Under the pieces are notes generated by a model that was not told the DNA's origin, made no database searches, and saw nothing but the letters and a program-made list of their open reading frames with translations. Below are positions 13,534 to 32,042 of a DNA stretch of 64,000 nucleotides, one piece after another; the stretch's first letter is position 1; each line of letters opens with the position of its first letter. A program made the position numbers and the translations under genes. The stretch is from Anaerolineae bacterium (GTDB taxonomy: Bacteria; Chloroflexota; Anaerolineae; B4-G1; SLSP01): positions 7,930 to 71,929 of the forward strand of contig DAOTTS010000118.1 of NCBI GenBank assembly GCA_034437735.1, read 5' to 3'.

Positions 13534-14832
13534 CTACCCCATGGAAAGAACCGAATCCTGCAGATGCCTCAGTCGCGTCACAAATTTTCCCTGATCCGGC
13601 TGGAAGTTATCGTAGGTCAGCGGTTCCCCCTTGGCGATCTCAGCCGTGACCGCCCCTCCCGGCGTGATCCCCAGGGGCACCGCCCGGCACGCGACCGCCT
13701 CTTCATAGGTATAGATCCGACCCAGATAATCAGCCTCTCCAATCTCACCGACGACCTGTCCCGGTTCCAGATCGCGCTTTGCGATGGGAATCACCTCTGA
13801 GACTAACCGGGTGGATGCTACGGTCCGCTCTCCATAGAGCACCGCCTCGGCCATCGCCAATGGGGTCTCGATATTGCACAGGTGATAAGGACGAAGGAGC
13901 GTATAGTAAGGTCCGGATCCCATCGAGACAAATTGCATACCCGCTCGCACCTGGTCATCACGGCTCGTCACAATGGCAAAGACCGCCGGCGCCACATCCC
14001 CCGTCGTAAAATCCACACATCCTCGATGCTCGAAGATCCCGCCATCCTCACTCGGCACGAAGACTCGATTGAGCGCAGGCACCTCAACCTTGATCCCGTG
14101 CATACCCGGAATGTCGGGAACCAGGCCGGTCGCGTTCGAGACGGCAGCCATCTCAACCATCGTCTTGGATCCATCCTTGAAAGCGGAGAGCATCTTCGGG
14201 TTCATCCCTTTCCGCTCCGCTTCCTCCCGGCAGCTCTCCGGTGTAGCACTGTGATCAATTGGATTGTTCTTGCCTTTGCCGAGGCAGACGACCTCAAACC
14301 CCAGAGCGCGGGCTTGATTGTAGATCGTCTTTAGAACGCCGGGTTCATCCCCGGAGGCGACCGTATAGACACAGCCGGCCCGCTGAGCCAGCCGGTGAAG
14401 CATCGGCCCTACCGTCACGTCTGTCTCTACGTTGAGCATAACCACGTGGGTGCCGTGCTCGATACACGTCCAGGCGACCCGGGCTCCAACGTCGGTCAAT
14501 CCCGTAGCCTCAACCACGACGTCGACCGACGGCAGACGCGCCGGCAGCGGGGCATCCTCCGTGATCACGTATTGACCGGATCGCAGGGCATCCTCGGCCT
14601 CACCCACCTGATGGGTCACACAGAGGTCGGCGTCTGCCAGCCCGAGCGATCGCAACACACGGAGCGGTCGTTCGACCTGAATATCCGCGATCACCCGTGT
14701 CTCCAATCCCTCCATTTGATGGGTCACGTGAACCAATCCCGATCCCATCTGTCCACATCCCACCAATCCTGCCAAGACAGGATGACCTTCCGCTTCCCGC
14801 ATGCACAAACGTTCGTAGAGTTCCATCGACAC
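13534..14832 (-). CDS. NAD(P)-binding oxidoreductase with C-terminal SAF domain (COG4091-type 'predicted homoserine dehydrogenase')
   Basis: [11 protein letters not shown] Rossmann motif. Core block [14 protein letters not shown]...[21 protein letters not shown] is shared with its paralog at 18057-19400. Confidence 0.7.
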
Positions 14833-14876
14833 GTCCTTCCAAGAATCCGCCGCTTATCGGGCTCTCGTATCCCCCG

Positions 14877-16430
14877 TCACGGTGACCGCAGCACAGCCAA
14901 TCGTCCAAAATCCTCCCGGAGATCTTCGTAAAGTTGTTTATACAGGTCGAAATACGCCATATAGACAGCGTGACTTTCAGGATCGGGGTCCATCGGCTCC
15001 ACGTACTCGGCCCAGGACTTCGCCACTGAAAAATCGTCAAAGAGACCAGTAGCGACGCCGGCGAGGATCGCATCCCCGAAGGGCGCCCCCTCCCGACGTT
15101 TGGCCAATACAATCGGCACGTCGAACACGTCCGCGATGATCTGCCGCCAAAGACGGCTGACCGCCCCACCTTCATTCAACACCATGGGATAGTTGACCTG
15201 GAGTCCGGCCTCCTGAATCAACCGGAACGAGTCGTACATCGCGTAGGCGACCCCTTCCATCATCGCCCGTACCAGATGCCCCTTGGTATGGTGGAGCGAT
15301 AGCCCAAAGGCGACCCCTCGGGCGTTCGCATCCCAGATAGGGGTGCGCTCTCCCATCAAGAAGGGCAGCATAATCAGCCCCTCCGACCCGGGGGGCACCT
15401 CCGCTGCCTGCAGGGTGAGCAAATCATACGCAGAGATATCCAACGTTCGCTCGACTTCACGCTCATAGGGAGAGAATCCATCGCGCAGGAACCGCAGACA
15501 CTGCCCGCCCGTCATCGTCGTCGGTACCGTGACGTAAGTGTTGGCCGAATCGACCGTATAGGGAAAATTGATCATCAATTGCCCCATCTCGGAGAAGTTG
15601 AAGGCTGAGTCACGATGAACGACGCCGAAATTGCCGACGGAGCCCAGGTTACTCTGAAAATCACCGACTTCGATCGCTCCGGCGCCCACCCAACTCGCGT
15701 TACAATCGACCTGTCCGGCCGCGACCGACGTTCCGGCGGCCAATCCCGTCGCCTCCGCGGCCGCGCCGGTCACCTCCCCAACGATATCCGTGCACCGATG
15801 GACCTCCGGCAAAATATCAGGATCGATGCCGATCTCGCCTAACATGGCCTCGTCAAACTGACGCTCCCGAAGATCGTAGGCCACGCCGAAGAACGCCCCA
15901 CCGGAGTCGTGCACAGTTTCTCGGCCCGTCAGTTTCATCGTCACATATCCATCGATTGTGAGCGCCGTGTGGATGCGGCTGAAGCTGTCGGGGCGATGAC
16001 GTTGCTCCCAAAGCAGATTGACCAAAGCCGGATGATCCTCCAGTCGATAGCCGGAGAGCTGGAAAATGCGCGCCTCACCCACCTCAGCCTTCAACCACGC
16101 GACGACGTCGGTCGCCCGCCGGTCCATCAGGTTGTACGCTCTGTGGATCGGGCTGCCCTCCCCATCGACCATCACCAGCGAGGGCAGCGCGGACGAAACG
16201 GCCACGCCACGGACGTCATCACCCGTCACGCCACCCTCCGATAGAATCTGGGGGATCAAACGACAGGCGGCCTCCCAGTAGAGGGTTGGCTCATGCTCCG
16301 ACCAACCCGGATGCTCGTGAATGAGAGGGTATTCCTCAAAGGCATAGCCCAGCACCTGCCCCTCCCCATCGATCAGACAGGCTTTGGCCCCACCGGTACC
16401 ATAATCAAGCCCCAATAGCAGATGTGCCAT
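14877..16430 (-). CDS. FGGY family carbohydrate kinase
   Basis: Start corrected to [16 protein letters not shown] (ATG 16430, GGAGG RBS); the 137-codon upstream extension in the ORF track has no support. FGGY N- and C-terminal domains are present. Confidence 0.85.
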
Positions 16431-16530
16431 AGCAACCTCCGGAAGACGAGAGAGCCTTACCAACCCAGGAGCCGAGCTCCGTGATAAAACAAGGACATGC
16501 TGCCAAGGTCTTTCAACTGGCTGAGCTTCG

Positions 16531-18048
16531 CTACAACAGTTGGTGTGAGATTTCCCGCACGGCCGGATAGAGCTTCCGGTAGAGCGCAAAACGCTCTGCG
16601 TAGCGCAGAGCCCGTGCCGGATCCGGCTCAAAACGCCGTGCCATTGCCACGGATTTGGCCGCCGCGTCCACAACGCTCGAAAAACGACCGGCTCCTGCAC
16701 CGGCGAGTAGAGCTGCGCCCCATGCCGCAGCTTCGGTGACCTCCGGCACGACGACCGGCACGCCGGTGATATCGGCCTTGAGTTGCAGCCAGAGATCGGA
16801 CTTAGCACCGCCGCCGATCGCTCTGAGCTCCGTGATCTCAACCCCGCCGCGTTTCAACAGATCCAGATTGAGACGCAGTTCGAACGTCAAGCCCTCCAAC
16901 ATCGCCTTGACCAACGTGCTGCGATCCGTGTCGAACGTGAGCCCCAACACCGCCCCCTTGGACGCCGGGTCGAAGGTCGGGGTTCCGCTGCCTGCAAAAT
17001 GCGGCAGCACGAGGAGAGAGGTAGGATCGGAGTTCGTCCCCTCGAGGAGCATATCGTAGGCATCCCTAGACACGCGCGCCGCCTCTGCTTTCACGTCGGG
17101 CGCTAACGTGTCGCGGAACCAGCGCAGAATCAGCCCGCCGCTGTGATTCAGCGTCATCGCGAGATAGAGTCCGGGAAGGGTGTGATGATACACCGAGATA
17201 TTCCCTTCGTACAGGGGATCCGTAAGGTCCGGTGACGATAGCGCCACCTCCACAACCTCCGCTGTACCCGTGGAGACCATCGCGAGGCCGGCCCCGGTTA
17301 GGCCGACCCCCAGGGCTCCGCAGGCCTGATCATGGCCGCCGGTCGCGACGACCGGACGCGACGACAGCCCCAGGGAGACGGCAAGGTCCCGATCCATACG
17401 ACCGATCGCCGTGCCTGAGGCCCTCACCGGCGACAGCCGCCCAGGGTCCAGATCCAAAAATGATAGGATCTCCGCGTCCCAGCAGTGATGATGCAGATCG
17501 TACATCTGGGTTCGCGAGGCCAGGCACCAGCTGACCGCGGCCGAGCCGGTCAGCTTTCGGATGAGAAAATCCTCGTACAACCGGAAAGCATCCGCCGATT
17601 GCCATACATCCAGCTCGTAATCCCGCAGCCAGAGCAGTTTGGGCAGCGTGTTGATCGTGTGAACCGGCATCCCGGTCCGGTCGAAGAGCGCCCGCGCACC
17701 AAAACGCTCCCGCAACTGCTGATTCTGTTCGCCGGTCCGGGTGTCCATCCCCAGGATCGCAGGGCGGATCGCACGCCCGTCTCCATCGACCGGGATGACA
17801 GCCTCCCCCTGTACTGACAAACCTATGGCCTCGACGGGCGCTTCCTCATCCGTTGTAAGCTGCCCCGTAACCTCCGCCAGGGCGTCCCTGGCGAGCGTCC
17901 AGACCCGTTCCGCATCCTGTTCAGCCCATCCTGGGACGGGGATATCAATCGCGTATTCCCGCGCTACGGAGGCGACGATCGCACCTTCCGGGTCGAAGGC
18001 CACGACTTTGCAGCCGGTCGTACCGATGTCCAAACCGATCAGCGTCAT
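16531..18048 (-). CDS. FGGY family carbohydrate kinase (paralog)
   Basis: [29 protein letters not shown]. The start overlaps the end of the upstream dehydrogenase gene. Confidence 0.85.
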
Positions 18049-18056
18049 CGCCCCTC

Positions 18057-19400
18057 CTAACGGAGCCGATCCAGGGCGACGAGAAGCGCGTCGGACGCGA
18101 TCTCACCGGCAAACCAGCGATCCTGCAATCGACGCAGGGAAAGCACGACGGAGGGTTCGCTCACCAAGACGTCATCAAGGGTAATGGGCTGGTCGACCTC
18201 GACCGGTCGGATGACCTTGGCGTTTTTTGCCAACCCGATAGGCAGCAGCCGTTCAGCCTTTGCGACCTCGTACCGATCGATCAGACCGTAGTAGCTGCTC
18301 CCACCGATCCCCTCCAGCGTGTCACCGGGTGCCAACCGCTGCTTGGCAACGGAGATCACTTCGGACGTCAACCGGTCCAAGGGAATCATATTGGAACGCC
18401 CCTCGATCACGAGCAGCGCACAGGTCAGAGGAACCTCAATGCTGCAAAGATGATAAGGTCGGAAGAGCGTATAATAAGGACCGGGGCCCATGTCCCGCAG
18501 GACCATCGCCTCCCGTAGGCGGGGATGATCCGTCCATACGATGAGAAAGACCCCTGGCGCTACTTTGCCCACACCATAATCGACGACGCCGATCTGATTC
18601 AGGATACCGCCATCCTCCTCAAGCCGGAAGACGCGCTCCAGGATCTCCCGATGGGTCACCGGACCATGCATGCCGCGCACGTCCGGCACCAATCCGGTCG
18701 CGTTGGAGACGGCTGCCATCTCAATCATCGTCTTACTGCCGTCGACGAACTCGATCAGCATCGTCGGATTCAACCCGCGCCGTGCCGCCTCCTGAGCCCA
18801 ATCGGGATCCGTGGGTTTGGCGTGGCGGTCCAGGGGATTGTTCTTCCCTTTGCCTGCGGCCACAATCGTGAAACCCAACGCGTCCGCAAAGTCATAGAGC
18901 TCCTTACAGGCGGCCGGCTCATCCCCGGCGGCCAATGCGTACTGGACGTCGTACTGTTCGGCGTACCATCGCAGGATAGGCCCGACGGTGATGTCGGTCT
19001 CGACGTTCATCATCGCGAGCTGCTGACCGTGCCGGGCCGCACGCAGCGCCGCTCGGGAACCGACCTCGGGCACGCCGGTCGCCTCAAGCATCACGTCGAC
19101 GGTCTGCATATCGGTGACAACTCGGAAGTCAGAGGCCGCAACGCGCCGGCCCTCCCGCACCGATGCATCGGCGTCCTCAGGGGTCTCGACGTCAGTCACC
19201 GTCCCCTCCACCCCGCCGATGTCATAGGCTTGCCTTGCCCGCTCCGGATCGATATCGGCGATAGCAACCACCTCGATCCCCTTCATCATCGTCGTCTCCG
19301 CGACGACGTCGGTGCCCATCTGGCCCGCCCCGATCAACCCAATCCGGACCGGATTCCCGGCCCTTTCGCGCGCCGAAAGCATCGCATTGAGTCCAATCAT
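18057..19400 (-). CDS. NAD(P)-binding oxidoreductase with SAF domain (COG4091-type), paralog of 13534-14832
   Basis: IGLIGAGQMGTD. About 60% identity to the paralog over the GKGKNNP...[12 protein letters not shown] core. Confidence 0.7.
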   Translation of the reverse strand: MIGLNAMLSARERAGNPVRIGLIGAGQMGTDVVAETTMMKGIEVVAIADIDPERARQAYDIGGVEGTVTDVETPEDADASVREGRRVAASDFRVVTDMQTVDVMLEATGVPEVGSRAALRAARHGQQLAMMNVETDITVGPILRWYAEQYDVQYALAAGDEPAACKELYDFADALGFTIVAAGKGKNNPLDRHAKPTDPDWAQEAARRGLNPTMLIEFVDGSKTMIEMAAVSNATGLVPDVRGMHGPVTHREILERVFRLEEDGGILNQIGVVDYGVGKVAPGVFLIVWTDHPRLREAMVLRDMGPGPYYTLFRPYHLCSIEVPLTCALLVIEGRSNMIPLDRLTSEVISVAKQRLAPGDTLEGIGGSSYYGLIDRYEVAKAERLLPIGLAKNAKVIRPVEVDQPITLDDVLVSEPSVVLSLRRLQDRWFAGEIASDALLVALDRLR

Positions 19401-19489
19401 GGATCATTCATCTCCTTATCATCACGTCTCTCACGGTGCAGATTCCGTGCTTCGGAAAACGCGCTGAGTCCCCGTACCCTTTACTGAGA

Positions 19490-20554
19490 CTACAAGTCAG
19501 GCTGGACCAGCACCTTGAGTCCGAGGCCGCTGGAGGCCACGTCGAACGCCTGATCGATCTGGTCGAGTGCGAATGTGTGGGTAATCAAGCGCTCAGCCGG
19601 AATGAGACCCCGCTTGAGGGTATCCAGGGCCAGCGCGTGCATCGTTGGATGGTACGAGAAGCCACCGACCACTTCGATCTCACCGTAGTGAATGCGGTTG
19701 CCATCCAGGGTAGTGGTGGGATCGGCCTTGGGCAGCCCACCGAAGAGCACAACCCGTCCGCCTTTGCGGGCAGCCAGCACGGCCTCAGTTTGCGTCTCAG
19801 CGACCGGATTCGCACAGATCACCATCTCCGCCCCCCGTCCTTCCGTAAGAGCCCGGACCCTATCCACAAAATTCTCCCGGGTGGGATCGATGATAGCATC
19901 GGGATGGAAGTCCTTGGCCAATTCGCGACGCGTCTCGCTCCGCTGGGAGACGATCACGCGGGCACCTCGGGCCTTGGCGATCGCGATGTGAATACATCCG
20001 ATAGGTCCGGCTCCAATCACCACCACCGTGTCATCGAGATCAGTACCGGCCTTGGCATGACTCGCGAGGACGGAGCTGGCAGGCTCGGCAAGTGCAGCGT
20101 GCCTGGACGAGAGGCCATCCGGGATTTTATGGACAATCCCGAGTCTGAGCATCTCGTCCGTCAATTGCAGCTTCTCCGCAAACCCACCCGGATAGCCCGG
20201 CGTGATACCCAGAAAATGGAGGGAATCACAGAGGTTAAAGAGCCCCCGGCGGCAGTAGAAGCACGTCCCGCAGTGAATATCCGGCGCGATGGCTAAGCGT
20301 TCACCGACCTCATACCCCTCCACACCTTGTCCGACACCGATAACAGTACCGGCGACTTCGTGTCCGGCGATGATGCCCGGAATACCCGGCAGGCTCCCTT
20401 CGCCTGCCGGTGGCCCTTCGCGCCAACGGCGCACATCCGACCCACAGACGCCACAAACCTCAACGCGCAGCACGAGTCCATCGCGAGGCACCTGAGGATC
20501 CGGCACCTCCCGTACTTCATACGTTCGTTTATCCGTTAATAAAGCCGCTTTCAT
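19490..20554 (-). CDS. Zn-dependent alcohol/polyol dehydrogenase (MDR, sorbitol/threonine DH-like)
   Basis: Start corrected to MKAALL (ATG 20554). CGVCGSD structural-zinc motif and GHE catalytic-zinc motif. Confidence 0.85.
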
Positions 20555-21192
20555 AGTTCCCTTTCTGACGCCTGGTCGCCTTCCGTTTCCTGCGCGATCT
20601 TCCGCCCTACCGCACCCGATGGATGGGTCTCTCCGAACGCCTGTCGCGTATACCCTCGGGCTTCCAGGAGCAACGCACACAGCACGTTCCCCACGGCCGA
20701 CGCGACAAGCGAACTGCCTGTTGCCACCATGCCATAGGGATCGATGCCTTCGATCGCGGGCACCAGCAGCACCGCGTCGCTCATCGCAGCCAGCGGTGAA
20801 TCGAGGCTCTCGGTCTGAGCCACGAGGGTCGCCCCCCGGGACCTGGCGATCTCCACGAACCCATTGACCTCAGCACTGTGCCCCCCCTTTGAGATCGCAT
20901 AGACCAGGTCGCGATCGGTCACCGCCCCGGATCCACCGTGCAGTGCGTCCGCCGCATTGATTGGCAGCGCCGGCGTTCCGGAGCACGAAAGCAAATGGGC
21001 CAACCGCTGAGCGACAGCGTGGGACGTGCCGGCCCCCGTCACCAGGACGTGGCCTTCGCACGCCAGCAGCAGGTTGACGACCCGCAACCATCGAGCATCC
21101 ACACCGGAAGCAAGAGCCTCTATTGCCGCTGCATCCCGGTCAATAACCGCCTGCGCCCGCGAACGGAGCCAGGCCTCTGAGAATTCGGACAT
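20551..21192 (-). CDS. SIS-domain sugar-phosphate isomerase (PHI/KpsF-like)
   Basis: Start at MSEFSEAW (AGGAGG 6 nt upstream). SIS motif [15 protein letters not shown]. The stop overlaps the ADH start (ATGA). Confidence 0.7.
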
Positions 21193-21202
21193 TCCGTACC
21201 TC

Positions 21203-22177
21203 CTACGACCCTTCGGGTTGAGTTTCAGACAACACAGCCTCGGCCGTGTCACGATCGGTCACCAATACGTCCAACAGCCCGCTCTTCAGCGCCGCTTTGA
21301 CGATCTCATGCTTGACCGCTCCCCCACCGACGCCAATCACCGTGGGAATGCACCGGATCGTGTCCAACGATAGGCCGATGATCCTCTGATTGAGCTTATC
21401 CAGAGAGACGGCCTCACCCTGGGCGTCGATGTAACGGAGTGCAATATCCCCAACCGCCCCATGAGCCTCCAATAGCCGTAGGTCATCCGCTGTGAGGATC
21501 GTCCCATCCCTGAGCAGAACGGAGTCCGGCGTGGGTACGCCCAACCCCACGACGGCGATGTCGGCACGGGCAGCGAGCTTGAGTACTTCGGCAACCTGGT
21601 GGTCCTGACGAAGCGCGCGCGCGGCGTCAAGGGTGCTGACGATACCGGGCGCCGGCAGCAAGCGCAGCTTGGCGTTGAGCTTCTGCGCCGCACGGCGGAT
21701 CAGCTCCGTCGAGTGTTCCCATGCGTCCACCGGCCCCAATCCCCCCGAGAGTTGAACCACGCTGACGTCCGGCATCGTGCGGGCTGGCAGCGCCTCGACT
21801 GTCGACCAGAGCGTTCGCCCCCAGGCCATCGCGACGATGCTGGACCGCGTGAGGCGCCGCAGCAGGCATTCAGCCGCCGGGGGCCCTAGATCACGGGCAA
21901 CCAACTCCGGCTGTGCCGGATGATTCACCTCAACAAGCACTGCCTCCTCCAGGCCGTAGGTCGCCTCAAGATCGTGCTCCAGATCGGCAGCACCCCCACT
22001 GGGCGGCACCAGAGAGATATTGACGACGTGAACATCCCTTGCCTGCTGAAGCAACCGTGAGACTTTGGGCCGAGAAAGCCCGAACCGTTCGGCGATCTCC
22101 CGCTGCGTGAGCCCATCCGCATAGTAAGCCTGGGCCACCCTATAGAGAAGACGATGGTGCTGGGGGTCAATCTGCAT
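21203..22177 (-). CDS. SorC/DeoR-family sugar-binding transcriptional regulator
   Basis: N-terminal HTH LTQREIAERFGLSRPKVSRLL followed by a sugar-binding SorC-type domain. Confidence 0.85.
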   Translation of the reverse strand: MQIDPQHHRLLYRVAQAYYADGLTQREIAERFGLSRPKVSRLLQQARDVHVVNISLVPPSGGAADLEHDLEATYGLEEAVLVEVNHPAQPELVARDLGPPAAECLLRRLTRSSIVAMAWGRTLWSTVEALPARTMPDVSVVQLSGGLGPVDAWEHSTELIRRAAQKLNAKLRLLPAPGIVSTLDAARALRQDHQVAEVLKLAARADIAVVGLGVPTPDSVLLRDGTILTADDLRLLEAHGAVGDIALRYIDAQGEAVSLDKLNQRIIGLSLDTIRCIPTVIGVGGGAVKHEIVKAALKSGLLDVLVTDRDTAEAVLSETQPEGS

Positions 22178-22232
22178 AGGTCACCTGAAACGATCATCAT
22201 CCGTACGAGTCAACGAGAAGCTTACCAGCAAA

Positions 22233-22264
22233 TGAACAGATGTTCAGACATGATCATCTGTTCA
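22233..22264. promoter_or_regulatory. 10-bp perfect inverted repeat TGAACAGATG-N12-CATCTGTTCA with nested ATGATCAT palindrome (candidate SorC operator)
   Basis: Located in the divergent intergenic region between the sorC-family gene and the ARH-fusion gene. Confidence 0.4.
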
Positions 22265-22534
22265 TAGAATACCTGGAGTATGGATGAATGTCAAGTCGCG
22301 GACAAAAAAAACGACACGAGCTTATCATGCTCGCTCGGAGGAGATTTACCATCGCCGGCTTCGCCAGATAAAGCCCTGAAGAATACGATCAATTGCTCTC
22401 GTTGCAAGTTTCAAGTACACTAGCATGCACTGCAAGATCAGCGCCGGACGTTATGCCCCCTCCGGAGGGACGACCAAGCGCAAAGGATAGAAAGACGTAC
22501 GGTCTACGGGCATTCGAGAAGGAGAACACAACCA

Positions 22535-24643
22535 ATGACAATCCCAAACGATTACGAATCGCGCATCTATGCGGGCGTGCTAGGCAAGATCATCGGGGTC
22601 TACCTCGGACGGCCTTTCGAGGGCTGGACCTATGAGCGTATTATGGAGGAATTGGGAGAGATCCAGTACTACGTCCACGAACGATTGAACAAGCCCTTGA
22701 TTGTCACTGACGACGATATCTCCGGCACCTTCACCTTCCTGCGCGCCCTGCCGGATCACGGAAATCGCGCCGACATCACACCGGCGGAGATCGGATCGAC
22801 GTGGCTCAATTACATTATTGAGAACAAAACGATCCTCTGGTGGGGCGGGATGGGAAATTCCACCGAACACACCGCATTCCTTCGTCTGCAATCAGGGATC
22901 CCCGCCCCGGAGAGTGGGTCGATGGAGACGAACAGCCGGATCGTGGCGGAGCAGATCGGAGCGCAGATCTTCATCGACGGCTGGGCAATGGTCGCCCCGG
23001 GCGACCCGGAGCTGGCGGCGACCCTGGCGCGGAAAGCCGCTAGCGTCAGCCACGATGGCGAAGCCATCTACGGGGCGCAGGTCCTGGCTGCGATGGAATC
23101 CCTGGCCTTCGTGGAGAACGATCTCAACCGCCTGTTGGATACGGCCGTGACCTTCATCCCTGATGACGCCATCATCTATCGCATGATCGCCGAACTGCGT
23201 GCCCTTCACGAGCAGGAACCTGATTGGCGAAAAGCCCTGAAATGGCTGGCAACTCACTACGGGTACGATACCTACGGCGGTAACGTCCATATCGTACCCA
23301 ACCACGGCCTGATGATCCTCAGCCTTCTCTATGGGGACGACGACTTCCAGAGGACAATGATGATCGTCAATACCGGGGGATGGGATACGGACTGCAACTC
23401 CGGGAACGTCGGATGTCTGATGGGCATCAAAAATGGTCTACCCGGACTGGAAACCGGCCCCGACTATCGAGGCCCGGTAGCGGATCGTCTCTACCTGCCG
23501 ACGGCGGATGGTGGACGGGCGATTACGGACGCGCTGATCGAGACCTATCACATCGTCAACAGCGGGCGGGCCCTCGCCGGGCTCGAGCCTGTCGCGCCCA
23601 AGAACGGAGCACGCTACCACTTCAATATGCCGGGGGCCGTTCAGGGCTTCCTGCCGGACACCGCCATCGAAGCGAAAGGCACCCTGAAGCTTGAGAACGT
23701 CCCTGGACATAGCAAGACCGGGGCGCGTAGCCTCGCTTTCCAATATCAGGACATCGCCCCGGGTCGCGTGGCCCGGGCGGGCACAGCGACGTTCCTGACC
23801 GAGGAAGCTGCCAGCATGCCGGGCTATGGACTCATCTGTTCCCCCACCCTCTATGCCGGACAGACGGTCCGCGCCAGGGTGGAAGCTGACGCCGATAACC
23901 AAGAGCCGGTCACCTGCGGACTCTATCTCGTCACCTATGGACCGGATGACGAGCGGTCCCACCGCCAAGGCCCCTGGGTTGAGATGGAGCCGGGGGAAAC
24001 GCGCGTCTTCGAATGGACAATCGGTCCCACCTATGGCGATCCGATTGCCGAAGTCGGCATAGAGATCCATGCGGAGACCAGAGCCAGCGGCACCCTCTAC
24101 CTCGATACCCTGACCTGGGAGGGGGAACCTGACGCCGACCTGACCCCACCCAGTCACAACGGCACGATGGGGCAGCGCGCGTGGGTGGAGGATATGGACC
24201 ACGTCTGGGCTCGGGGGGGATCCCTTCGCGTGATCCAGGACGAGGGTACCGGGTTGCTCATCCAGGGAACCCGCCGGTGGCAGGACTACACGGTCCGCGC
24301 CAAGCTCTCGCCGCACATGATAGCGTCGGGCGGCATCGCGGCCCGGGTCCAGGGACTGAACCGCTACTATGCCCTACTGCTGGATCGCGATCATCGCGTA
24401 TGCCTCGTGAAATCCAGGGGGACCTGCACCGTCCTCGCGGAGACGGACTTCCCGTGGAACGTCGACGAGGAGTACGAACTCCAGTTATCCGTGCAGGGCG
24501 CCCGATTGCTCGCAAAAGTCGATGGCGAGACACTCTTCGACCTCAAGGATCGCCAAGCCCCCCTGACGGGAGGAGGGATCGCCCTTGTGTGCGAAGAGGG
24601 CCGAATGGACGTCATGAACATAAGCGTTCGTCCGAATGCATAG
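22535..24643 (+). CDS. fusion protein: ADP-ribosylglycohydrolase-fold domain + central beta-rich region + C-terminal DUF1080-like ConA/LamG jelly-roll domain
   Basis: ARH-fold motifs VTDDDISGTF and GGWDTDCNSGNVGCLMG. The first metal-binding motif reads GVYLGRPFEG (GDALG-like with Asp to Val). The C-terminus (WVED...RRWQDYTVRAKL...GGIAARVQGLNRYYALLLD) resembles DUF1080. RBS GAAGGAG. Confidence 0.7.
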   Translation: MTIPNDYESRIYAGVLGKIIGVYLGRPFEGWTYERIMEELGEIQYYVHERLNKPLIVTDDDISGTFTFLRALPDHGNRADITPAEIGSTWLNYIIENKTILWWGGMGNSTEHTAFLRLQSGIPAPESGSMETNSRIVAEQIGAQIFIDGWAMVAPGDPELAATLARKAASVSHDGEAIYGAQVLAAMESLAFVENDLNRLLDTAVTFIPDDAIIYRMIAELRALHEQEPDWRKALKWLATHYGYDTYGGNVHIVPNHGLMILSLLYGDDDFQRTMMIVNTGGWDTDCNSGNVGCLMGIKNGLPGLETGPDYRGPVADRLYLPTADGGRAITDALIETYHIVNSGRALAGLEPVAPKNGARYHFNMPGAVQGFLPDTAIEAKGTLKLENVPGHSKTGARSLAFQYQDIAPGRVARAGTATFLTEEAASMPGYGLICSPTLYAGQTVRARVEADADNQEPVTCGLYLVTYGPDDERSHRQGPWVEMEPGETRVFEWTIGPTYGDPIAEVGIEIHAETRASGTLYLDTLTWEGEPDADLTPPSHNGTMGQRAWVEDMDHVWARGGSLRVIQDEGTGLLIQGTRRWQDYTVRAKLSPHMIASGGIAARVQGLNRYYALLLDRDHRVCLVKSRGTCTVLAETDFPWNVDEEYELQLSVQGARLLAKVDGETLFDLKDRQAPLTGGGIALVCEEGRMDVMNISVRPNA

Positions 24644-24675: not shown

Positions 24676-25713
24676 ATGGAAACGATGCTAGCAGCCGTAG
24701 TTGAAGAACCAGGAGCGCTCGGCGTCCGAGAGGTACCTATCGCTGAGATCGGACCGTACGAGGCAAAATGCCGACTGCTCTATGGAGCGACCTGTACCGG
24801 GACCGACCAGCATATCATAGCGGGCCGCTTTCCATGGCCGATCACATATCCTACGATTTTGGGCCACGAAAGCGTCGGAGAGATCATCGAGGTGGGATCC
24901 AAAGTGCGAAACTATCAAATCGGCGACTTGATCTCCCGGGTGGGAGCTCGCCCGCCGGAAGACAGCGACCTCAACGTCAACTGGGGCGGCTTCGCCGAAT
25001 ACGGCATCGCTGTGGACCATCAAGCGATGGCAGAGGATGGCGAGTCCCGATCCCGGTGGGCCCCCTATCGAGTTCACCAGGTCATCCCTCCCGAGATCGA
25101 TCCCAGGGCTGCCACGATGATCATTACGTGGAGGGAAACGCTCAGCACCACGATGCGCCTGGGAATCCAAGCCGGGGATCGCATCCTGGTCGTCGGTTCC
25201 GGCGGCAATGGGCTCGCTTTTGTGGCTCACGCCGCGTACGCCCAGGCCAGCCCGATTGTGATAATCGGGAACGTCAGACGCGAGTCACACGCGATGAGGG
25301 CCGGCGCGACGGGATACGTCGATTACAAAGCTGCCAACGTCGAGGAACAACTCACGGCGCTCAGCCCCGGCGGATTCGATTACGTGATCGATGCAGTAGG
25401 GAAATCGCAGACGGCCGATCAGGTACTCCCCCACCTCAACCCCGGCGGCACGCTCGCGATCTACGGCATTGATGATTATGACGCCACCATCCTCCATCCG
25501 AACCGCGCCCCCGGCACGTTTACCGTCTACAAGGGCGGATACGATGAAGCAGAAGCTCACGAGGAAGTCATCCAACGGATGCTGGGGGGAGCGCTCGACG
25601 CGTCCATCTGGCTGGACTTAGATCACGTCTTTCACCTTCAAACCCTTGGGCAAGCGATTGAAGCGGTGCGTGATCGACAGATGGTCAAAGCCTTGGTCAA
25701 ACTCAACGCCTGA
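24676..25713 (+). CDS. Zn-dependent alcohol dehydrogenase (MDR superfamily)
   Basis: Start at METMLAAV (RBS GAAGGAG). GHESVGEI zinc motif. The long N-terminal extension in the ORF track overlaps the preceding gene and is rejected. Confidence 0.8.
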   Translation: METMLAAVVEEPGALGVREVPIAEIGPYEAKCRLLYGATCTGTDQHIIAGRFPWPITYPTILGHESVGEIIEVGSKVRNYQIGDLISRVGARPPEDSDLNVNWGGFAEYGIAVDHQAMAEDGESRSRWAPYRVHQVIPPEIDPRAATMIITWRETLSTTMRLGIQAGDRILVVGSGGNGLAFVAHAAYAQASPIVIIGNVRRESHAMRAGATGYVDYKAANVEEQLTALSPGGFDYVIDAVGKSQTADQVLPHLNPGGTLAIYGIDDYDATILHPNRAPGTFTVYKGGYDEAEAHEEVIQRMLGGALDASIWLDLDHVFHLQTLGQAIEAVRDRQMVKALVKLNA

Positions 25714-25787: not shown

Positions 25788-25975
25788 AATTGTGAAGGAA
25801 CGACCAAACGAAGTGCGCATAGGGATTGGGATGATCAAGATCGAGGTTAGCCGACAGCCTAAGAATAAGCCTCAGCCGCGCCTTTTCCGAGGGCGGGACG
25901 GTTGATGCTGTCTAGCTAACTAAGCTTATTTAGGAGACCAGCCAGCCTACCCGCAAAGTAGGCTGGCTTTTCTTT
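25788..25975 (+). ncRNA. candidate small transcript (about 190 nt) bounded by promoter and intrinsic terminator; may be an sRNA or encode a 24-aa peptide (25831-25905)
   Basis: Promoter at 25753-25781 and terminator at 25941-25975. Long-range pairing TTAGCCGACAGC/GCTGTCTAGCTAA. Small ORF MIKIEVSRQPKNKPQPRLFRGRDG has AGGGA 5 nt upstream. Confidence 0.4.
25941..25975 (+). terminator. rho-independent terminator
   Basis: GCCAGCCTAC-ccgcaaa-GTAGGCTGGC followed by TTTTCTTT. Confidence 0.7.
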
Positions 25976-26148
25976 ATGGTTGACCATTCATATCACAGGC
26001 CATCACGATCGAATGTAACGTAGGGGGAAAATTGCCATCCGGAGGGTATCACCGTTGCTGACGGTGAATACGATTCGATGGCAAGACATGAGAAGATCGT
26101 GAATGGAAGGGTTATTCAGGCAGTCCAAGCAAGGTGAGGAAGGAGAGG

Positions 26149-27357
26149 ATGATGTCTACGAACACCCATACCGACTCAATCACAGCGAACACGATAAGAT
26201 CAGAAAAGAAACACACCCAGCGCTCGAAATCTCGGGTGCAATCTGGACTTGCAGGGGTCGTGGTGGCAGAGAGCGACATCGCCAAGGTCGATGGGGAGCG
26301 GGGGACGCTCAGTTATCGCGGGTATGATATTGGGGATCTCGCGTGCCATTCGACGTTTGAGGAAGTGGTTTACCTGCTCTGGTACGGAGAGCTCCCCACT
26401 CAAGACGCGCTCGACAACTTCGCGGCGAAACTCGCCTCGGAGCGGGAGATCGACGAGACCACGTGGCAGGTCCTGACGATGCTACCCAGCGACGTGGAAC
26501 CTATGGATGCGCTGCGCACCGCGGTATCCACCCTCGCGTGTGCCGACCCGGCCAACGAAAACGGCAAGGTGAGCCACGAGGAGAACCTAAGAAAAGCAAT
26601 GAAACTCGTCGCCAAGTTCCCTACCGTCGTCGCCAGCTACTACCGGCACCTTCAGGGGGAACCCCGCATCCATCCCGATCCTTCGCTAAGTCATGCGGCC
26701 AACTTCCTCTACATGCTCTCGGGCACCCGCCCGGACGAGACCCAAGCCAAGGCGATGGACCTGGCGATGCTTCTCATGGCCGAACATGGATTCAACGCCT
26801 CCACGTTCTCGGCACGCGTCACCGCCTCGACACTCTCGGATATGTACGCAGCGATTACCACCGCGATCGGAACCCTGAAGGGTCCGCTTCACGGCGGCGC
26901 AAATCGACGAGCGATGGAGATGATGCTTGAGATCGGAGAGATCGAGCGTGTAGAGCCCTACATCAAGGAGGCCTTGGCCGCCAAGAAGCGTATTATGGGC
27001 TTCGGGCATCGCGTGTATAAGAAAGCCCCGGATCCGCGTTCGGCGTATCTGAGGGGGCGTCTCTACGAGCTGTGTGCAGATCTCCAGGATTTCCACTTCT
27101 ACAACCTGGCCACTGCCATCGCGGAAACCGTTGAGGCTCAGAAGGGTCTCTATCCCAACGTTGACTTCTATGCCGCGCCGATGCTCTATCTGGTCGGAAT
27201 TCCCCTGGAGCTCTTTGTCACGATCTTTGCGATCAGTCGCATCCCCGGCTGGACGACGCACGTGATGGATCAATATGGGAACAACCGCTTGCTGCGGCCT
27301 CTGAGTGAATATGTAGGTCCAGAAGACTGTGCCTACGTTCCCATTGACCAACGCTAA
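26149..27357 (+). CDS. gltA: citrate synthase
   Basis: GFGHRVYK and HGGAN citrate-synthase signatures. RBS GGAAGGAGAGG. ATG 26149 or 26152. Confidence 0.9.
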   Translation: MMSTNTHTDSITANTIRSEKKHTQRSKSRVQSGLAGVVVAESDIAKVDGERGTLSYRGYDIGDLACHSTFEEVVYLLWYGELPTQDALDNFAAKLASEREIDETTWQVLTMLPSDVEPMDALRTAVSTLACADPANENGKVSHEENLRKAMKLVAKFPTVVASYYRHLQGEPRIHPDPSLSHAANFLYMLSGTRPDETQAKAMDLAMLLMAEHGFNASTFSARVTASTLSDMYAAITTAIGTLKGPLHGGANRRAMEMMLEIGEIERVEPYIKEALAAKKRIMGFGHRVYKKAPDPRSAYLRGRLYELCADLQDFHFYNLATAIAETVEAQKGLYPNVDFYAAPMLYLVGIPLELFVTIFAISRIPGWTTHVMDQYGNNRLLRPLSEYVGPEDCAYVPIDQR

Positions 27358-27414
27358 TACGCGTGAACCGTGTACCAGGCCAACCTATCGATCAGGAACG
27401 GAGGAGCTTTCATC

Positions 27415-29355
27415 ATGGGACAGACCTTAACAGAGAAGATTATCGCAGACCATCGGGTCCAAGGCACGATGGCCCCTGGCGATGAGATAGCAATCACCAT
27501 CGACCACACGCTGACACAGGATGCGACCGGTACGATGGCATGGCTTGAGTTTGAGGCGATGCAGATACCGCGCGTTCAGACCGAGCGCTCGGTCAGTTAC
27601 GTCGATCACAATATGCTTCAGGCTGACTTCCGCAACGCCGACGACCACCGCTATCTCCAGACCGCCGCAGCGCGCTACGGCGCATACTTTTCGCGGCCCG
27701 GCAACGGCATCTGCCACCAGGTGCAGTTGGAGCGATTCAGCGTGCCGGGCAAGACGCTCCTGGGGTCGGACAGCCACACGCCAAACTCCGGGGGGCTTGG
27801 GGCCCTGGCGATCGGTTCCGGCGGACTGGACGTCGCCGTCGCGATGGCCGGGGGGCCTTTCTCTATGACGATGCCCGAGGTGCTCGGCGTCAGGCTCACC
27901 GGGACATTAAGCGATTGGGTCACGGCCAAGGACGTCATCCTGGAGATGTTGCGTCGACTTACCGTCAAGGGCGGGGTTGGCAAAGTCTTGGAGTACTTCG
28001 GACCCGGCGTCGCGACCTTATCCGTCGATGAGCGAGCCACGATCTGCAACATGGGTGCGGAGCTCGGTGCCACAACCTCTATCTTCCCCAGCGACGAGAG
28101 AACCCAGGCCTACCTGCACGCGCAGGGCCGCGCAGAGGCCTGGAAGCCGCTGGCGGCCGACGATGATGCCGAGTACGCCGAGGTTATAGACCTCGATTTA
28201 AGCGCGGTCGAACCGCTCATCGCCACGCCCTCAATGCCGGACAACGTCGTGCCGCTTGAGGAGGTCGCCGGCCAACCGGTCGCACAAGTCTGCATCGGAT
28301 CCTGTGTCAACTCCTCCTATGAGGATCTGGTCAAAGTGGGAGAGATACTCAAGGGCCGGCAGGTCCATCCCGAGGTCAGCTTGACCATTACCCCCGGCAG
28401 CAAGCAGGTCTATACGATGATCGCGGAGAATGGCATCCTGGCCGAGATGATCCGGGCCGGGGCCCGGATCCTCGAATCGGCGTGCGGACCGTGCCTGGGG
28501 ATGGGTCAGGCCCCGGCCACCAGCGTCGCCACACTCCGCTCGTTCAACCGCAACTTCAAGGGGCGCAGCGGCACCGCTGACGATCAATCGTACCTCGCCA
28601 GCCCGGAGACCTGTGCAGCCTCTGCCCTGAGCGGGGTGATTACCGATCCGAGGACCTTGGGCGCGCGGATCCAGGTGATCTCCCCCCTTCATTACGTGAC
28701 GGAGGACACGATGATCATCGCCCCCCCAGCCGTGGAGGAGGCGGAAACGATCCGGGTGATCCGGGGACCCAACATCAAGCCAGTCCCCATCGCGGATCCG
28801 CTCCCCGACGCACTGGACGTGCGTGTGCTCCTCAAGGTCGGAGACAACATCACCACCGATCACATTATGCCCGCCGGCGCAAAGATACTTCCGCTGCGGT
28901 CCAACATCCCCGCCATCGCGGAGTACGTCTTCGCCCGCGTCGACCCGGACTTCGTCGCGCGTGCGAAAGCTTGCGAAAGCGGCGCATTGATCGGCGGAGC
29001 CAACTACGGTCAGGGATCGAGCCGCGAACACGCAGCCCTCGCGCCTATGTACTTGGGCGTCAAAGCCGTGGTCGCCAAGTCCTATTCCCGTATCCACCAC
29101 GCTAACCTGGTCAATATGGGCATGTTGCCCCTGGAATTCATAGAGGAGGATGATTACGAGCGCATCGAACAGGGCGACGTCCTGGAGATCACGGGCGTCA
29201 AACAGGCCCTGGCAAAAGGAAGCAGCCTCAAGGTCCGCAACAAGTCCCGGGACATCACCTACGAGATGCAGATTCAACTCACGGACCGCCAGCGGCGGAT
29301 TCTGAAAGCCGGCGGATTGCTCAACTACTACCGCACCGAGGAGGCCGGCGTATGA
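27415..29355 (+). CDS. acn: aconitate hydratase (646-aa aconitase-family protein with fused swivel domain)
   Basis: Aconitase-family Fe-S ligands CGPCLGMGQ and [14 protein letters not shown]-terminal swivel domain [13 protein letters not shown]. Position between gltA and icd. Start MGQTLTEK with RBS GGAGGAG. Confidence 0.75.
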
Positions 29356-30371
29356 CCCACACCATGACGTTGATCCCGGGGGATGGCATAGGTCCGGAGG
29401 TCACGGGCGCTGCCCGCCGGGTTCTGGAAGCGACCGGGTTGTCCTTGGCATGGGATGTCCAGCACGCGGGTGCATCCGTAATGGATACGGAGGGAACCCC
29501 ACTGCCCAAACGGGTTCTCGAATCGGTTCGAACTCACGGCGTTGCGCTCAAAGGCCCAATCACCACGCCCGTGGGATCGGGATTCCGCAGCGTGAACGTC
29601 GCTATCCGCCGCGCACTGGACCTATACGCAAATCTCCGGCCAACCAAGAGCATCCCTGGACTCCCGCACACGCGGGAGAATGTGGATCTCGTGGTCGTTC
29701 GTGAGAACACGGAGGGCCTTTACGTCGGTATCGAACATGAAGTCATCGCGGGTGAAGCCTCGGAGGCCGTGCGCATCATCACGCGGCGGGGATCCGAGCG
29801 CATTGTGCGCTTCGCCTTCGAATATGCCCGGGCGAACGGACGGCAAAAGGTCACCGCCGTCCATAAGGGCAATATTCTCAAGGTCACAGACGGCCTCTTT
29901 CTCGACGCTGCAAAGCAGGTGGCGGAGGACTATGCCGATATCACCTTTGAGACCCGGATCGTCGACGCGATGTGTATGCAGTTGGTGATGCAACCGGAGG
30001 CGTACGACGTCCTGGTGATGCCCAATCTCTACGGCGACATCGTCAGTGACCTGTGCTCGGGGTTGGTCGGTGGGCTGGGCGTCACGCCGGGTGCCAACCT
30101 GGGCCGCGACCTGGCAGTCTTTGAGCCTGTGCACGGCTCCGCACCGGATATCGCAGGCCTGGATCAAGCGAATCCTTGCGCTGCCATTCTGACAGGCGCG
30201 CTGATGCTTCGCCACCTGGGCGAAGTCGAGACAGCGGCCCGCATCGAGTCGGCCGTCAACGAGGTGCTGAGTGAAGGGCAAGTCATCACCGCTGATCTTA
30301 AGCTTACCGAGGACACCCGAGAGGTGGTCGGCACGCAGGCGATGGCCGACGCCGTCATCGCCAAGCTCTGA
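29352..30371 (+). CDS. icd: isocitrate dehydrogenase (NAD-type, isopropylmalate DH family)
   Basis: Family blocks [17 protein letters not shown] and NLYGDIVSD. The start overlaps the aconitase stop (ATGA). Confidence 0.8.
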
Positions 30372-30396
30372 CCTTTCAGTCCTGAGTGAGTGTTGG

Positions 30397-30439
30397 AGGG
30401 ATCCTCTGGGAAACACTACTTCCCAGAGGATCCCTTTTT
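30397..30439 (+). terminator. rho-independent terminator after icd
   Basis: GAGGGATCCTCTGGG-loop-CCCAGAGGATCCC followed by TTTTT. Confidence 0.75.
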
Positions 30440-30444
30440 GACGT

Positions 30445-30473
30445 TTGGGTCTACACAAAGGTTACGGTACAAT
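30445..30473 (+). promoter_or_regulatory. candidate promoter TTGGGT-17-TACAAT for guaB
   Basis: Hexamers with 17-nt spacing, about 95 nt upstream of the guaB ATG. Confidence 0.3.
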
Positions 30474-30566
30474 ACCGGCAACGAGCAATCAGCCGACCTC
30501 CACGCATCGACCTGCCAACGGAACGTGTCCAATCAATCACTATGATCTCGACAGAGGGGGAATCAG

Positions 30567-32042
30567 ATGAACGATGAGATTTTTGCCGGTATTGAAGCCC
30601 TGACTTTCGATGATGTCCTCATCGTACCGGGGTATACAGAAGTACTGCCCAACGAGACGGACGTCAGCACCGACTTGACCGCCAAGATCAAACTGTCCAT
30701 CCCCATTATCTCCGCGGCGATGGACACGGTCACCGAAGCACCGATGGGCATTGCGCTGGCTCGTGAGGGCGGGCTGGGCATCATTCACCGCAATATGTCC
30801 CCGACCGACCAAGCGGCCGAGGTTGCCAAAGTCAAGCGATCCCAATCGGGGATGATCGTCGACCCTATCACCCTGCCGCCCACCGCCACGCTTCAGGATG
30901 CCGAGGACATTATGTCGACCTATCACATCAGCGGCGTGCCCATCGTCGACGAGAACAACTACCTGGTCGGAATCCTCACAAATCGCGACTTCCGGTTTGT
31001 CGACCCGGAGGACTATCACCGCTCCGTCACCAAGTTTATGACCAGCGAGGATATCATCTCGGCGCCGGTCGATATCTCCATCGAGGAGGCCAAGCGCTTG
31101 CTCCACAAGCACCGCATCGAGAAGCTGACCCTCGTCGATGAAAACAACATCCTCAAGGGCTTGATCACCGTTAAGGACATCCAAAAGGCGCGGGATTTCC
31201 CCAACGCGACGGCGGATAGTCAGGGCCGGCTGGTGACCGGAGCTGCAGTTGGGGTCGGTGCGGACTTAGAGCACCGTATCGAGCTGCTGACAGATGCCGA
31301 CGTCGACATTGTGGTCATCGACACCGCCCACGGGCACTCGGCCGGCGTCCTGACAGCCGTGCGCCGTATCCGGAAGCTGGCGCCGGATCTCCCGATTATC
31401 GCAGGGAACGTCGTCACAAAGAAAGGGACGGAGGCCCTGATCGAAGCAGGAGCGAACGTGATCAAGGTCGGGGTTGGCGCGGGCTCGATCTGTACGACGC
31501 GCATTGTGTCCGGTGCAGGGATGCCTCAGCTCACCGCCATCCACAACTGCGTCGCCGCCGCCAAACCTTACGACGTCCCCGTCATCGCCGACGGCGGTAT
31601 CAAGTACAGCGGCGATATCGTCAAAGCGATCGCGGCCGGCGCCCATCTGGTGATGCTCGGCAGTATGCTCGCGGGACTCGACGAGGCACCGGGCGACGTC
31701 GTCTACTACGACGGACGGCGTTTTAAGGAGTACCGAGGGATGGGAAGCGTGGCAGCGATGCGGGGATACGGAAGAGACCGCTACGGGTCGGGACAGGACA
31801 AGAGTGGCAAGCTGGTCCCCGAGGGCGTTGAGGGCCGCGTCCCCTATAAGGGAACGGTTCATGACTATATCTACCAGCTCATTGGCGGGTTGCGCTCAGG
31901 ATTGGGCTACGCGGGGGCAGCCAATCTGGCGGAGCTCCGCGAGAAAGCGCAGTTCACCCGCATCACCCAGGCCGGCCTGATCGAGAGCCATCCCCACGAC
32001 GTCATCATCACCAAGGAGCCCCCGAATTATCAGGTGGGCTGA
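30567..32042 (+). CDS. guaB: IMP dehydrogenase
   Basis: N-terminal [15 protein letters not shown]. Tandem CBS domains. Catalytic-loop region [15 protein letters not shown]. Confidence 0.9.

Follow-up and report, generated by a model that had tools for sequence, protein, structure and literature searches.

Enzymes of the ADP-ribosylglycohydrolase (ARH) fold, such as ARH1, ARH3 and DraG, use two metals to grip the distal ribose by its 2'',3''-cis-diol while a conserved Glu assists cleavage at C1'', and proteins of this superfamily are nearly always annotated as ADP-ribosylation erasers; to our knowledge, CAZy lists no glycoside hydrolase family with the ARH fold. Among the described loci with ARH genes, E. 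coli yegTUV comprises a transporter, an ARH and a PfkB kinase, the functions of which were unknown as of 2024 (PMC10819704), and in the ribose-utilisation (rus) loci of Bacteroidetes ARH genes recur with ribokinases (bioRxiv 10.1101/574913). Here we describe an ARH-family gene from a 64,000-nucleotide (nt) stretch of contig DAOTTS010000118.1 of an Anaerolineae bacterium (hereafter the window, meaning that whole stretch), whose 702-amino-acid (aa) product, the ARH-fusion, joins an ARH domain to two beta-sandwiches. We find that the fusion is a real, widespread and uncharacterised variant of the ARH superfamily, whose clade keeps the catalytic centre and yet is wired into sugar-import and kinase operons, and we tentatively propose that it may act as a ribofuranosidase.

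We found strong membership of the N-terminal region in the ARH family, as PF03747 (ADP_ribosyl_GH) matches aa 14-305 with E = 1.4e-52 (score 179.6 bits, cutoff 26.2; positions 2-284 of 287 of the hidden Markov model, HMM). Foldseek comparison of the AlphaFold2 (AF2) model of this domain returned MJ1187 (TMt 0.77), ARH3 (0.73), DraG (0.77) and the T. thermophilus structure 2cwc (0.78), and the ARH-fold N-terminus read from the letters alone by the initial annotation is thereby borne out. The motifs that it quoted are all present in the translation, those of the N-terminal domain being GVYLGRPFEG (aa 21-30), TDDDISGTF (aa 58-66) and GGWDTDCNSGNVGCLMG (aa 281-297). Upon mapping the active site through an alignment via MJ1187, and to ARH3 via a classical ARH neighbour, we observe that GVYLGRPFEG aligns with GDxxGxxxE and keeps the catalytic Glu as E29, that TDDD corresponds to the T-D-D ligands (T58, D59 and D60), and that GWDTDC corresponds to D-x-D-(T/S), in which D284 and D286 are kept and the Thr/Ser is replaced by an invariant Cys287; the catalytic and metal-binding residues of ARH3 we take to be E41, T76/D77/D78 and D314/D316/T317. 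The only departures from the ARH site are Val22 in place of the GDALG Asp and Cys287 in place of one Thr. In an alignment of 45 sequences, the most distant at 37% overall identity, E29, T58, D59, D60, D284 and D286 are invariant or more than 90% conserved. The conserved candidate active-site residues comprise E29; T58, D59, D60 and D61; H173, D174 and E176; H252, N256 and H257; and D284, T285, D286, C287 and N288, of which the H173/D174/E176 and H252/N256/H257 groups and N288 are family-specific, as are S109-H112, E139/Q140/D148 and C294, all of them conserved to the same degree. The invariant Cys287, together with Cys294 and the His cluster, may indicate that the metal is Zn, Fe or Mn.

The protein shares with the solved ARHs (human and Latimeria ARH3, DraG, MJ1187 and 2cwc) the all-alpha fold (TMt 0.73-0.78) and the Glu, TDD and DxD(T/S) motifs, and differs from them in having GVYLG for GDALG, an invariant Cys after DxD, extra invariant His/Asn/Cys clusters and about 350 more residues, which form the two beta-sandwiches. 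The replacement of the GDALG Asp by Val and of a Thr by Pro had been taken as an argument against a classical ARH. The Asp-to-Val change is real, but the Glu and Asp ligands are kept and the GDALG Asp is presumably not a metal ligand in ARH, so that Val22 alone is no argument against ribosyl chemistry and the case is weaker than had been stated. Mean column identity is 80% in the ARH domain, 54% in the middle domain and 38% in the C-terminal domain. Because the ARH residues are kept, and because the C-terminal domain holds no invariant acidic residue or His, we place the presumed catalysis in the ARH domain, whose site does not appear degenerate. A direct search of the PDB with the fusion protein returned nothing useful, and a profile of the ARH domain had MJ1187 as its sole PDB match, at a weak E = 4e-4. 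A signal peptide is absent, since the match to the ARH HMM already begins at residue 14 and the fold includes helix 7-28.

The AF2 model, built on a 45-sequence alignment (pLDDT 94.8, pTM 0.94), is compact, with the all-alpha N-terminal domain followed by beta-sandwiches at about aa 355-535 and 545-702; with 27 close homologues the ARH domain had been modelled poorly (pLDDT 70.7), which was mended by adding 25 representatives at 37-52% identity. The first sandwich agrees with the central beta-rich region noticed initially, and no Pfam or PDB sequence match to it was found in any of 20 members, whereas in Foldseek the pair of sandwiches aligns with CBM22 modules and with galectins, both in tandem. 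For the C-terminal domain, the levanase CBM66 from B. subtilis (4b1m; TMt 0.81-0.83, rmsd 2.0 A, 157 columns) is the closest structure, followed by the lectin domain of galactocerebrosidase (GALC, GH59); the profile of the C-terminal family also matches the levanase CBM66 (E = 1.3e-4, about 76 residues). The ligand of CBM66 is the terminal furanose (fructose) of levan. CBM66 (SacC, B. subtilis) and the C-terminal sandwiches of GH32 endo-levanases are the nearest relatives of the last domain, with the differences that its partner is an ARH and not GH32, that it is presumably cytoplasmic and not secreted, and that the likeness is one of fold and, in sequence, of those roughly 76 residues only.

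The initial annotation had assigned this C-terminal region to a DUF1080-like domain by the motifs WQDYTV, GGIAARVQG and YYALLLD, which lie within aa 582-617. The ConA-like jelly-roll fold was found, and the Foldseek matches include the DUF1080-type 4jqt (BT3469). The domain of the window copy, however, scores 17.3-17.5 bits against a DUF1080 cutoff of 26.8 and lies nearer to the CBM66 and GH59 lectin domains, and the full protein has no DUF1080 match. Per-member Pfam searches matched GH59_C in 9 of 32 members and 3keto-disac_hyd (DUF1080, PF06439) in 6 of 32 at E <= 0.01 (best 2.8e-4); the GH59_C cutoff (27.4 bits) is reached by some homologues and missed by the window copy. The domain therefore has the jelly-roll and weak HMM matches in common with DUF1080 and the GH59 lectin domain (PF21708) and is DUF1080-like at the level of fold or clan, not as a family member. 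Conserved positions in it are Gly, Trp, Tyr and Arg, and none of its Asp, Glu or His residues is invariant, which makes a binding or structural module more likely than a 3-keto-glycoside hydrolase. Domains related to this jelly-roll also occur in 6-13 tandem copies in a few giant proteins (P0125, 3465 aa; P0165, 3027 aa; P0262, 2351 aa).

Next, we investigated how widely the architecture occurs. A word-indexed search returned 7689 related protein clusters, and the best 120 of the 7689 are all of about 700 aa, with full-length coverage and 62-92% identity, named only "ADP-ribosylglycohydrolase (family protein)" or "hypothetical". Full-length relatives were found in at least 596 species in a scan of one genome per species. 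The hosts belong mostly to Chloroflexota (Anaerolineae, Caldilineaceae, Chloroflexia and Ktedonobacteria), with others in Poribacteria, Armatimonadota, Bacillota metagenome-assembled genomes, Trueperaceae and Nitrospirales, and Anaerolinea thermolimosa IMO-1 and Ktedonosporobacter rubrisoli are among those in culture. A HMMER search with the C-terminal half alone gave 1477 representatives, 222 of them at E < 1e-30, most being proteins of about 700 aa or fragments. The initial annotation had named a widespread and already characterised family as one outcome that would count against it; the former half applies, and the latter does not, since no characterisation of this fusion architecture was found in the literature.

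We examined the gene context in a sample of 80 homologous loci, mostly from Chloroflexota, in which neighbouring open reading frames (ORFs) were clustered de novo and the clusters annotated by Pfam and NCBIfam. CUT1-type ABC permeases were the most frequent neighbours (35 loci), followed by solute-binding proteins (SBPs; 28 loci), LacI regulators (21 loci) and PfkB kinases (12 loci). Gfo/Idh/MocA proteins occurred in 8 of 77 loci, SDR proteins in 8, Zn-dependent alcohol dehydrogenases (Zn-ADHs, any, among the de novo clusters) in 7 and a second, classical ARH (ARH2) in at least 7. The typical one-strand string reads LacI, SBP, permease, permease, optionally ARH2, fusion, PfkB. Same-strand permeases lie within 1.6 kb at 24 of the 63 loci having at least 2.5 kb upstream, and an ABC component or PfkB lies within 10 kb at 36 of 76. 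Close relatives of the window copy show the same partners: a fusion 67% identical to it has a ribokinase directly upstream (L008), and one 63% identical has the full importer (L016). Deep-branching members, whose C-terminal halves are 30-37% identical, keep the importer and kinase link, with the orders permease, fusion, ribokinase-like kinase (L087); permease, fusion, EamA, PfkB (L088); LacI, fusion, SBP, permease, permease (L089); and SBP, permease, permease, fusion (L092). The operon logic is that of yegTUV and rus, namely an importer, an ARH-family hydrolase, a ribokinase-type kinase and a local repressor, with differences in the transporter (MFS in yegTUV, SusC/D in rus, CUT1 ABC in the fusion loci) and in the hydrolase, as the ARH genes of yegTUV and rus are called ADP-ribosylglycohydrolases and have had no extra domains reported.

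Several loci depart from the typical string. At L094 (GCA_001724575.1, 8001-15694), another of the deep-branching members, the fusion gene comes first, followed by an ABC system of the amino-acid/opine type (SBP_bac_3), not a CUT1 sugar importer, and the locus also holds an IU-nucleoside hydrolase; this is a different route, still tied to ribose release. Tandem double copies of the ARH-fusion gene were observed at L030, L033, L037 and L067. A classical ARH of 381 aa with an intact GDAIGAPAEG stands directly upstream in at least seven loci (for example L028, L040, L042, L058, L073 and L076), which suggests that two ARH-type hydrolases act stepwise.

The kinases next to the fusion include true ribokinases. 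Four of them pass the ribokinase equivalog cutoff of 299.65 bits (L008, 373; L030, 333.5; L033, 344.6; L061, 340), and all four keep GSxNxD, GGKGANQA and NExE. Among the deep-branching members, the kinase of L087, a partial gene, has all three ribokinase motifs, and that of L088 has two, including NExE but with GGKGGNQA, and scores below the cutoff. The assumption that every adjacent PfkB is a ribokinase was dropped, as a re-test gave two classes, one of them true ribokinases. Ribokinases and ketohexokinases both act on furanose sugars, and the most cautious wording for the product is a sugar of furanose type, being ribose in several lineages.

The preserved ARH apparatus, the two sandwiches, the lack of a signal peptide and the importer and kinase context together led us to propose a ribofuranosidase, for which the furanose ligand of CBM66 and the precedent of the rus loci speak as well. 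We infer, as a serious but still tentative reading, that the fusion is a cytoplasmic enzyme that acts on an imported ribose-containing glycoside or conjugate and yields ribose. The substrate, a non-nucleotide glycoside and most likely a ribofuranoside, would be taken up by a LacI-controlled ABC importer of the CUT1 type; the binuclear-metal site (E29; T58/D59/D60; D284/D286/C287) would bind the cis-diol of the furanose and cleave the anomeric bond, and the two tightly packed beta-sandwiches may shape or extend a site for the aglycone or glycan. The freed sugar would then be phosphorylated by the adjacent PfkB kinase, in several lineages apparently a true ribokinase. Having presumably left the typical operon, the window copy now stands beside a Zn-ADH and across from a pentulose-kinase/isomerase operon under SorC control; as a speculation, either of these might handle the aglycone or the pentose, and, equally speculatively, the nearby polyol and pentulose genes prompt the idea of a ribosyl-polyol substrate such as ribosyl-ribitol. 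Somewhat less probable than the proposal for the single protein is the broader one of a new mechanistic class of glycoside hydrolases, ARH-fold binuclear-metal ribofuranosidases with a CBM66-like module and a new beta-sandwich, in which CUT1 importer, fusion and ribokinase-type kinase would form a so far unrecognised pathway that harvests ribose from an environmental ribose-containing glycoside in Chloroflexota, Poribacteria, Armatimonadota and others.

Several observations weigh against a ribofuranosidase. The sampled loci are phylogenetically non-independent, about half of them show neither an ABC component nor a PfkB, and no ABC importer or ribokinase lies near the fusion in the window. Furthermore, 8 of the 12 PfkB neighbours in the sample are not canonical ribokinases and belong to one Anaerolineae/Phototrophicaceae clade; these divergent genes, directly downstream of the fusion at L058, L059, L063, L073, L076, L077, L078 and L082, encode proteins 25-30% identical to ribokinase, in which YGEIDLD and VGGAAAN replace GSxNxD and GGKGANQA with loss of the motif Lys, and among solved structures ribokinases and ketohexokinases come closest to them, with similarly weak scores, so that the product in that clade may not be ribose. 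A hydrolase for glycosides of another sugar (a fructose or arabinose furanose, or a polyol conjugate), to which the ribokinase link would be secondary, deserves some weight, and we consider it unlikely without dismissing it. Such a substrate would suit this largest adjacent kinase set, the resemblance of the C-terminal domain to the fructan-binding CBM66 and to GH32 levanase C-terminal domains, the GH127, GH65, GH35/42, GH116 and GH172 genes near some members, and the Zn-ADH, Gfo/Idh/MocA or SDR neighbours at 7-8 loci each. It fits less well with the metal sites of ARH, which grip the cis-2'',3''-diol of ribose, a diol that fructofuranose does not offer, with true ribokinases adjacent in at least four separate arrangements and ribokinase-like ones in two deep-branching members, and with the IU-nucleoside hydrolase in the L094 operon.

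The strong PF03747 membership and the intact catalytic and metal set would suit a true ADP-ribosyl hydrolase, acting on protein, nucleic acid, a small molecule, O-acetyl-ADP-ribose or PAR with the sandwiches recognising the target, as would the classical second ARH at seven or more loci and the link drawn between yegTUV and an ADP-sugar effector, its function being unknown (PMC10819704). We regard this as improbable, because the recurrent partners are LacI, a CUT1 importer and a sugar kinase, in place of ADP-ribosyl signalling genes, and because the fused modules are of carbohydrate type and the ARH domain has diverged from all solved ARHs to the point where a profile picks out MJ1187 alone. 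No ADP-ribosyltransferase was found among the recurrent neighbour clusters that were annotated or inspected, rare neighbours not all being annotated, and the pairing typical of DraG/DraT, Tri1 and ARH1/ARH3-type systems is likewise missing there; a PADLOC defence scan also gave no match and thus lends no support to a role in defence. If instead the C-terminal domain were the catalyst, as a 3-keto-glycoside hydrolase or hydratase following a Gfo/Idh/MocA 3-dehydrogenase with the ARH domain as accessory, the sub-threshold DUF1080 matches, the 4jqt similarity and the Gfo/Idh/MocA gene directly upstream at L004 would be explained; the score of the window copy below the cutoff, the better fit of GH59_C and CBM66, and a jelly-roll poor in invariant polar residues next to an ARH domain dense in them make it very improbable, and the 3-dehydrogenase is no consistent partner, being found at a minority of loci and not in the transcription unit of the window. 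The ribosyl-conjugate processing offered by the initial annotation is accordingly favoured by the comparative context, and its 3-keto-glycoside alternative is not, the DUF1080 threshold not being reached. Least credible of all is a non-catalytic lectin or structural pseudoenzyme in the manner of crystallin J1 or ADPRHL1: inactive ARH-fold proteins do exist and motif 1 has changed to GVYLG, but the catalytic Glu and the acidic ligands are under strong purifying selection, as the far higher column identity of the ARH domain than of the sandwiches also indicates, and the gene is placed in catabolic operons.

The coordinates of the gene and its immediate surroundings in the window are given in Table 1. 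The divergent SorC regulator and the Zn-ADH had both been noted initially and are present, the Zn-ADH starting 32 nt past the stop of the ARH-fusion, which itself is preceded by an AGGAG ribosome-binding site 10 nt 5' of its start. A terminator-like hairpin behind the Zn-ADH suggests that these genes form a single transcription unit, and they are probably co-transcribed. The palindrome, with halves ATGAACAGATGTTCA and TGATCATCTGTTCAT, lies within the 357-nt intergenic region between the SorC and ARH-fusion genes and overlaps promoter-like hexamers of both strands, and it is a candidate operator of the SorC regulator. An identical 702-aa protein occurs on six metagenome contigs, one of them from a microbial mat, with the same neighbours, and no NCBIfam model matched the protein.

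Table 1. Features of the ARH-fusion locus, in positions of the window.
Feature	Position	Strand	Basis
ARH-fusion ORF, three-domain ARH-family protein, 702 aa, complete, ATG start	22535..24643	+	ORF list and translation
N-terminal ARH fold domain, aa 1-348	22535..23578	+	PF03747, Foldseek, invariant columns
Linker (PKxGARFHFxLPGxVQGF, conserved) and middle beta-sandwich, aa 349-539	23579..24151	+	AF2 strands E384-E529, pLDDT >90
C-terminal ConA-like / CBM66-like jelly-roll, aa 540-702	24152..24640	+	Foldseek, family profile
Zn-dependent alcohol dehydrogenase family gene (Zn-ADH)	24676..25713	+	Pfam ADH_N / ADH_zinc_N
Terminator-like hairpin with T-run, after Zn-ADH	25940..25968	+	consensus scan only
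SorC-family regulator gene, divergent from the ARH-fusion	21203..22177	-	nearest DeoR (Bacillus)/LsrR, below both cutoffs
34-bp near-perfect palindrome, candidate operator	22232..22265	.	15-nt arms, 93% complementary, 4-nt gap

The sugar catabolic island seen around the fusion by the initial annotation is real in the window, but homologues of its genes (FGGY kinases, DRL-type oxidoreductases, SIS isomerase, SorC and both Zn-ADHs) adjoin the fusion at only 0-5 of the 80 loci, where the conserved partners are the ABC importer, LacI and PfkB/ribokinase. The Zn-ADH downstream of the fusion has a homologue at only 2 of the 80, and no homologue of the SorC regulator was found next to fusion homologues in 80 other genomes. 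The neighbour set persists only in close relatives, and its rarity elsewhere points to lineage-local synteny; the SorC/SIS/DRL/FGGY island was consequently rejected as a functional partner, its genes being missing from nearly all other loci. Compared with yegTUV and rus, the window copy is without importer and kinase. At 13534-21192 on the minus strand, behind the DeoR/LsrR-like SorC regulator, the island itself comprises DRL_cat oxidoreductases and xylulokinase-like FGGY kinases, two of each and in tandem pairs (the former of 432 and 447 aa and without an NCBIfam model), as well as a Zn-ADH and a SIS isomerase that resembles KpsF/GutQ but has no CBS domain. All of its proteins score below curated cutoffs, and it looks like an unassigned pathway of pentulose or polyol phosphates. 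Downstream of the fusion, at 26134-32042, lies a block of citrate synthase, aconitase, isocitrate dehydrogenase and IMP dehydrogenase genes that is syntenic with 12498-18223 of L004, where a contig of 1.1 Mb carries a 68%-identical relative, and local gene order here thus reflects lineage.

Overall, if the fusion proves to be a ribofuranosidase, it would bring a new fold and mechanism to the carbohydrate-active enzymes and correct a systematic mis-annotation, and it would offer a handle on the turnover of ribose-containing glycans or conjugates in mats, sludge, soil and sponge symbionts. The idea would also provide a concrete hypothesis for long-unexplained transporter/ARH/PfkB sets such as E. 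coli yegTUV, and the cultured hosts Anaerolinea thermolimosa IMO-1 and Ktedonosporobacter rubrisoli make it directly testable.

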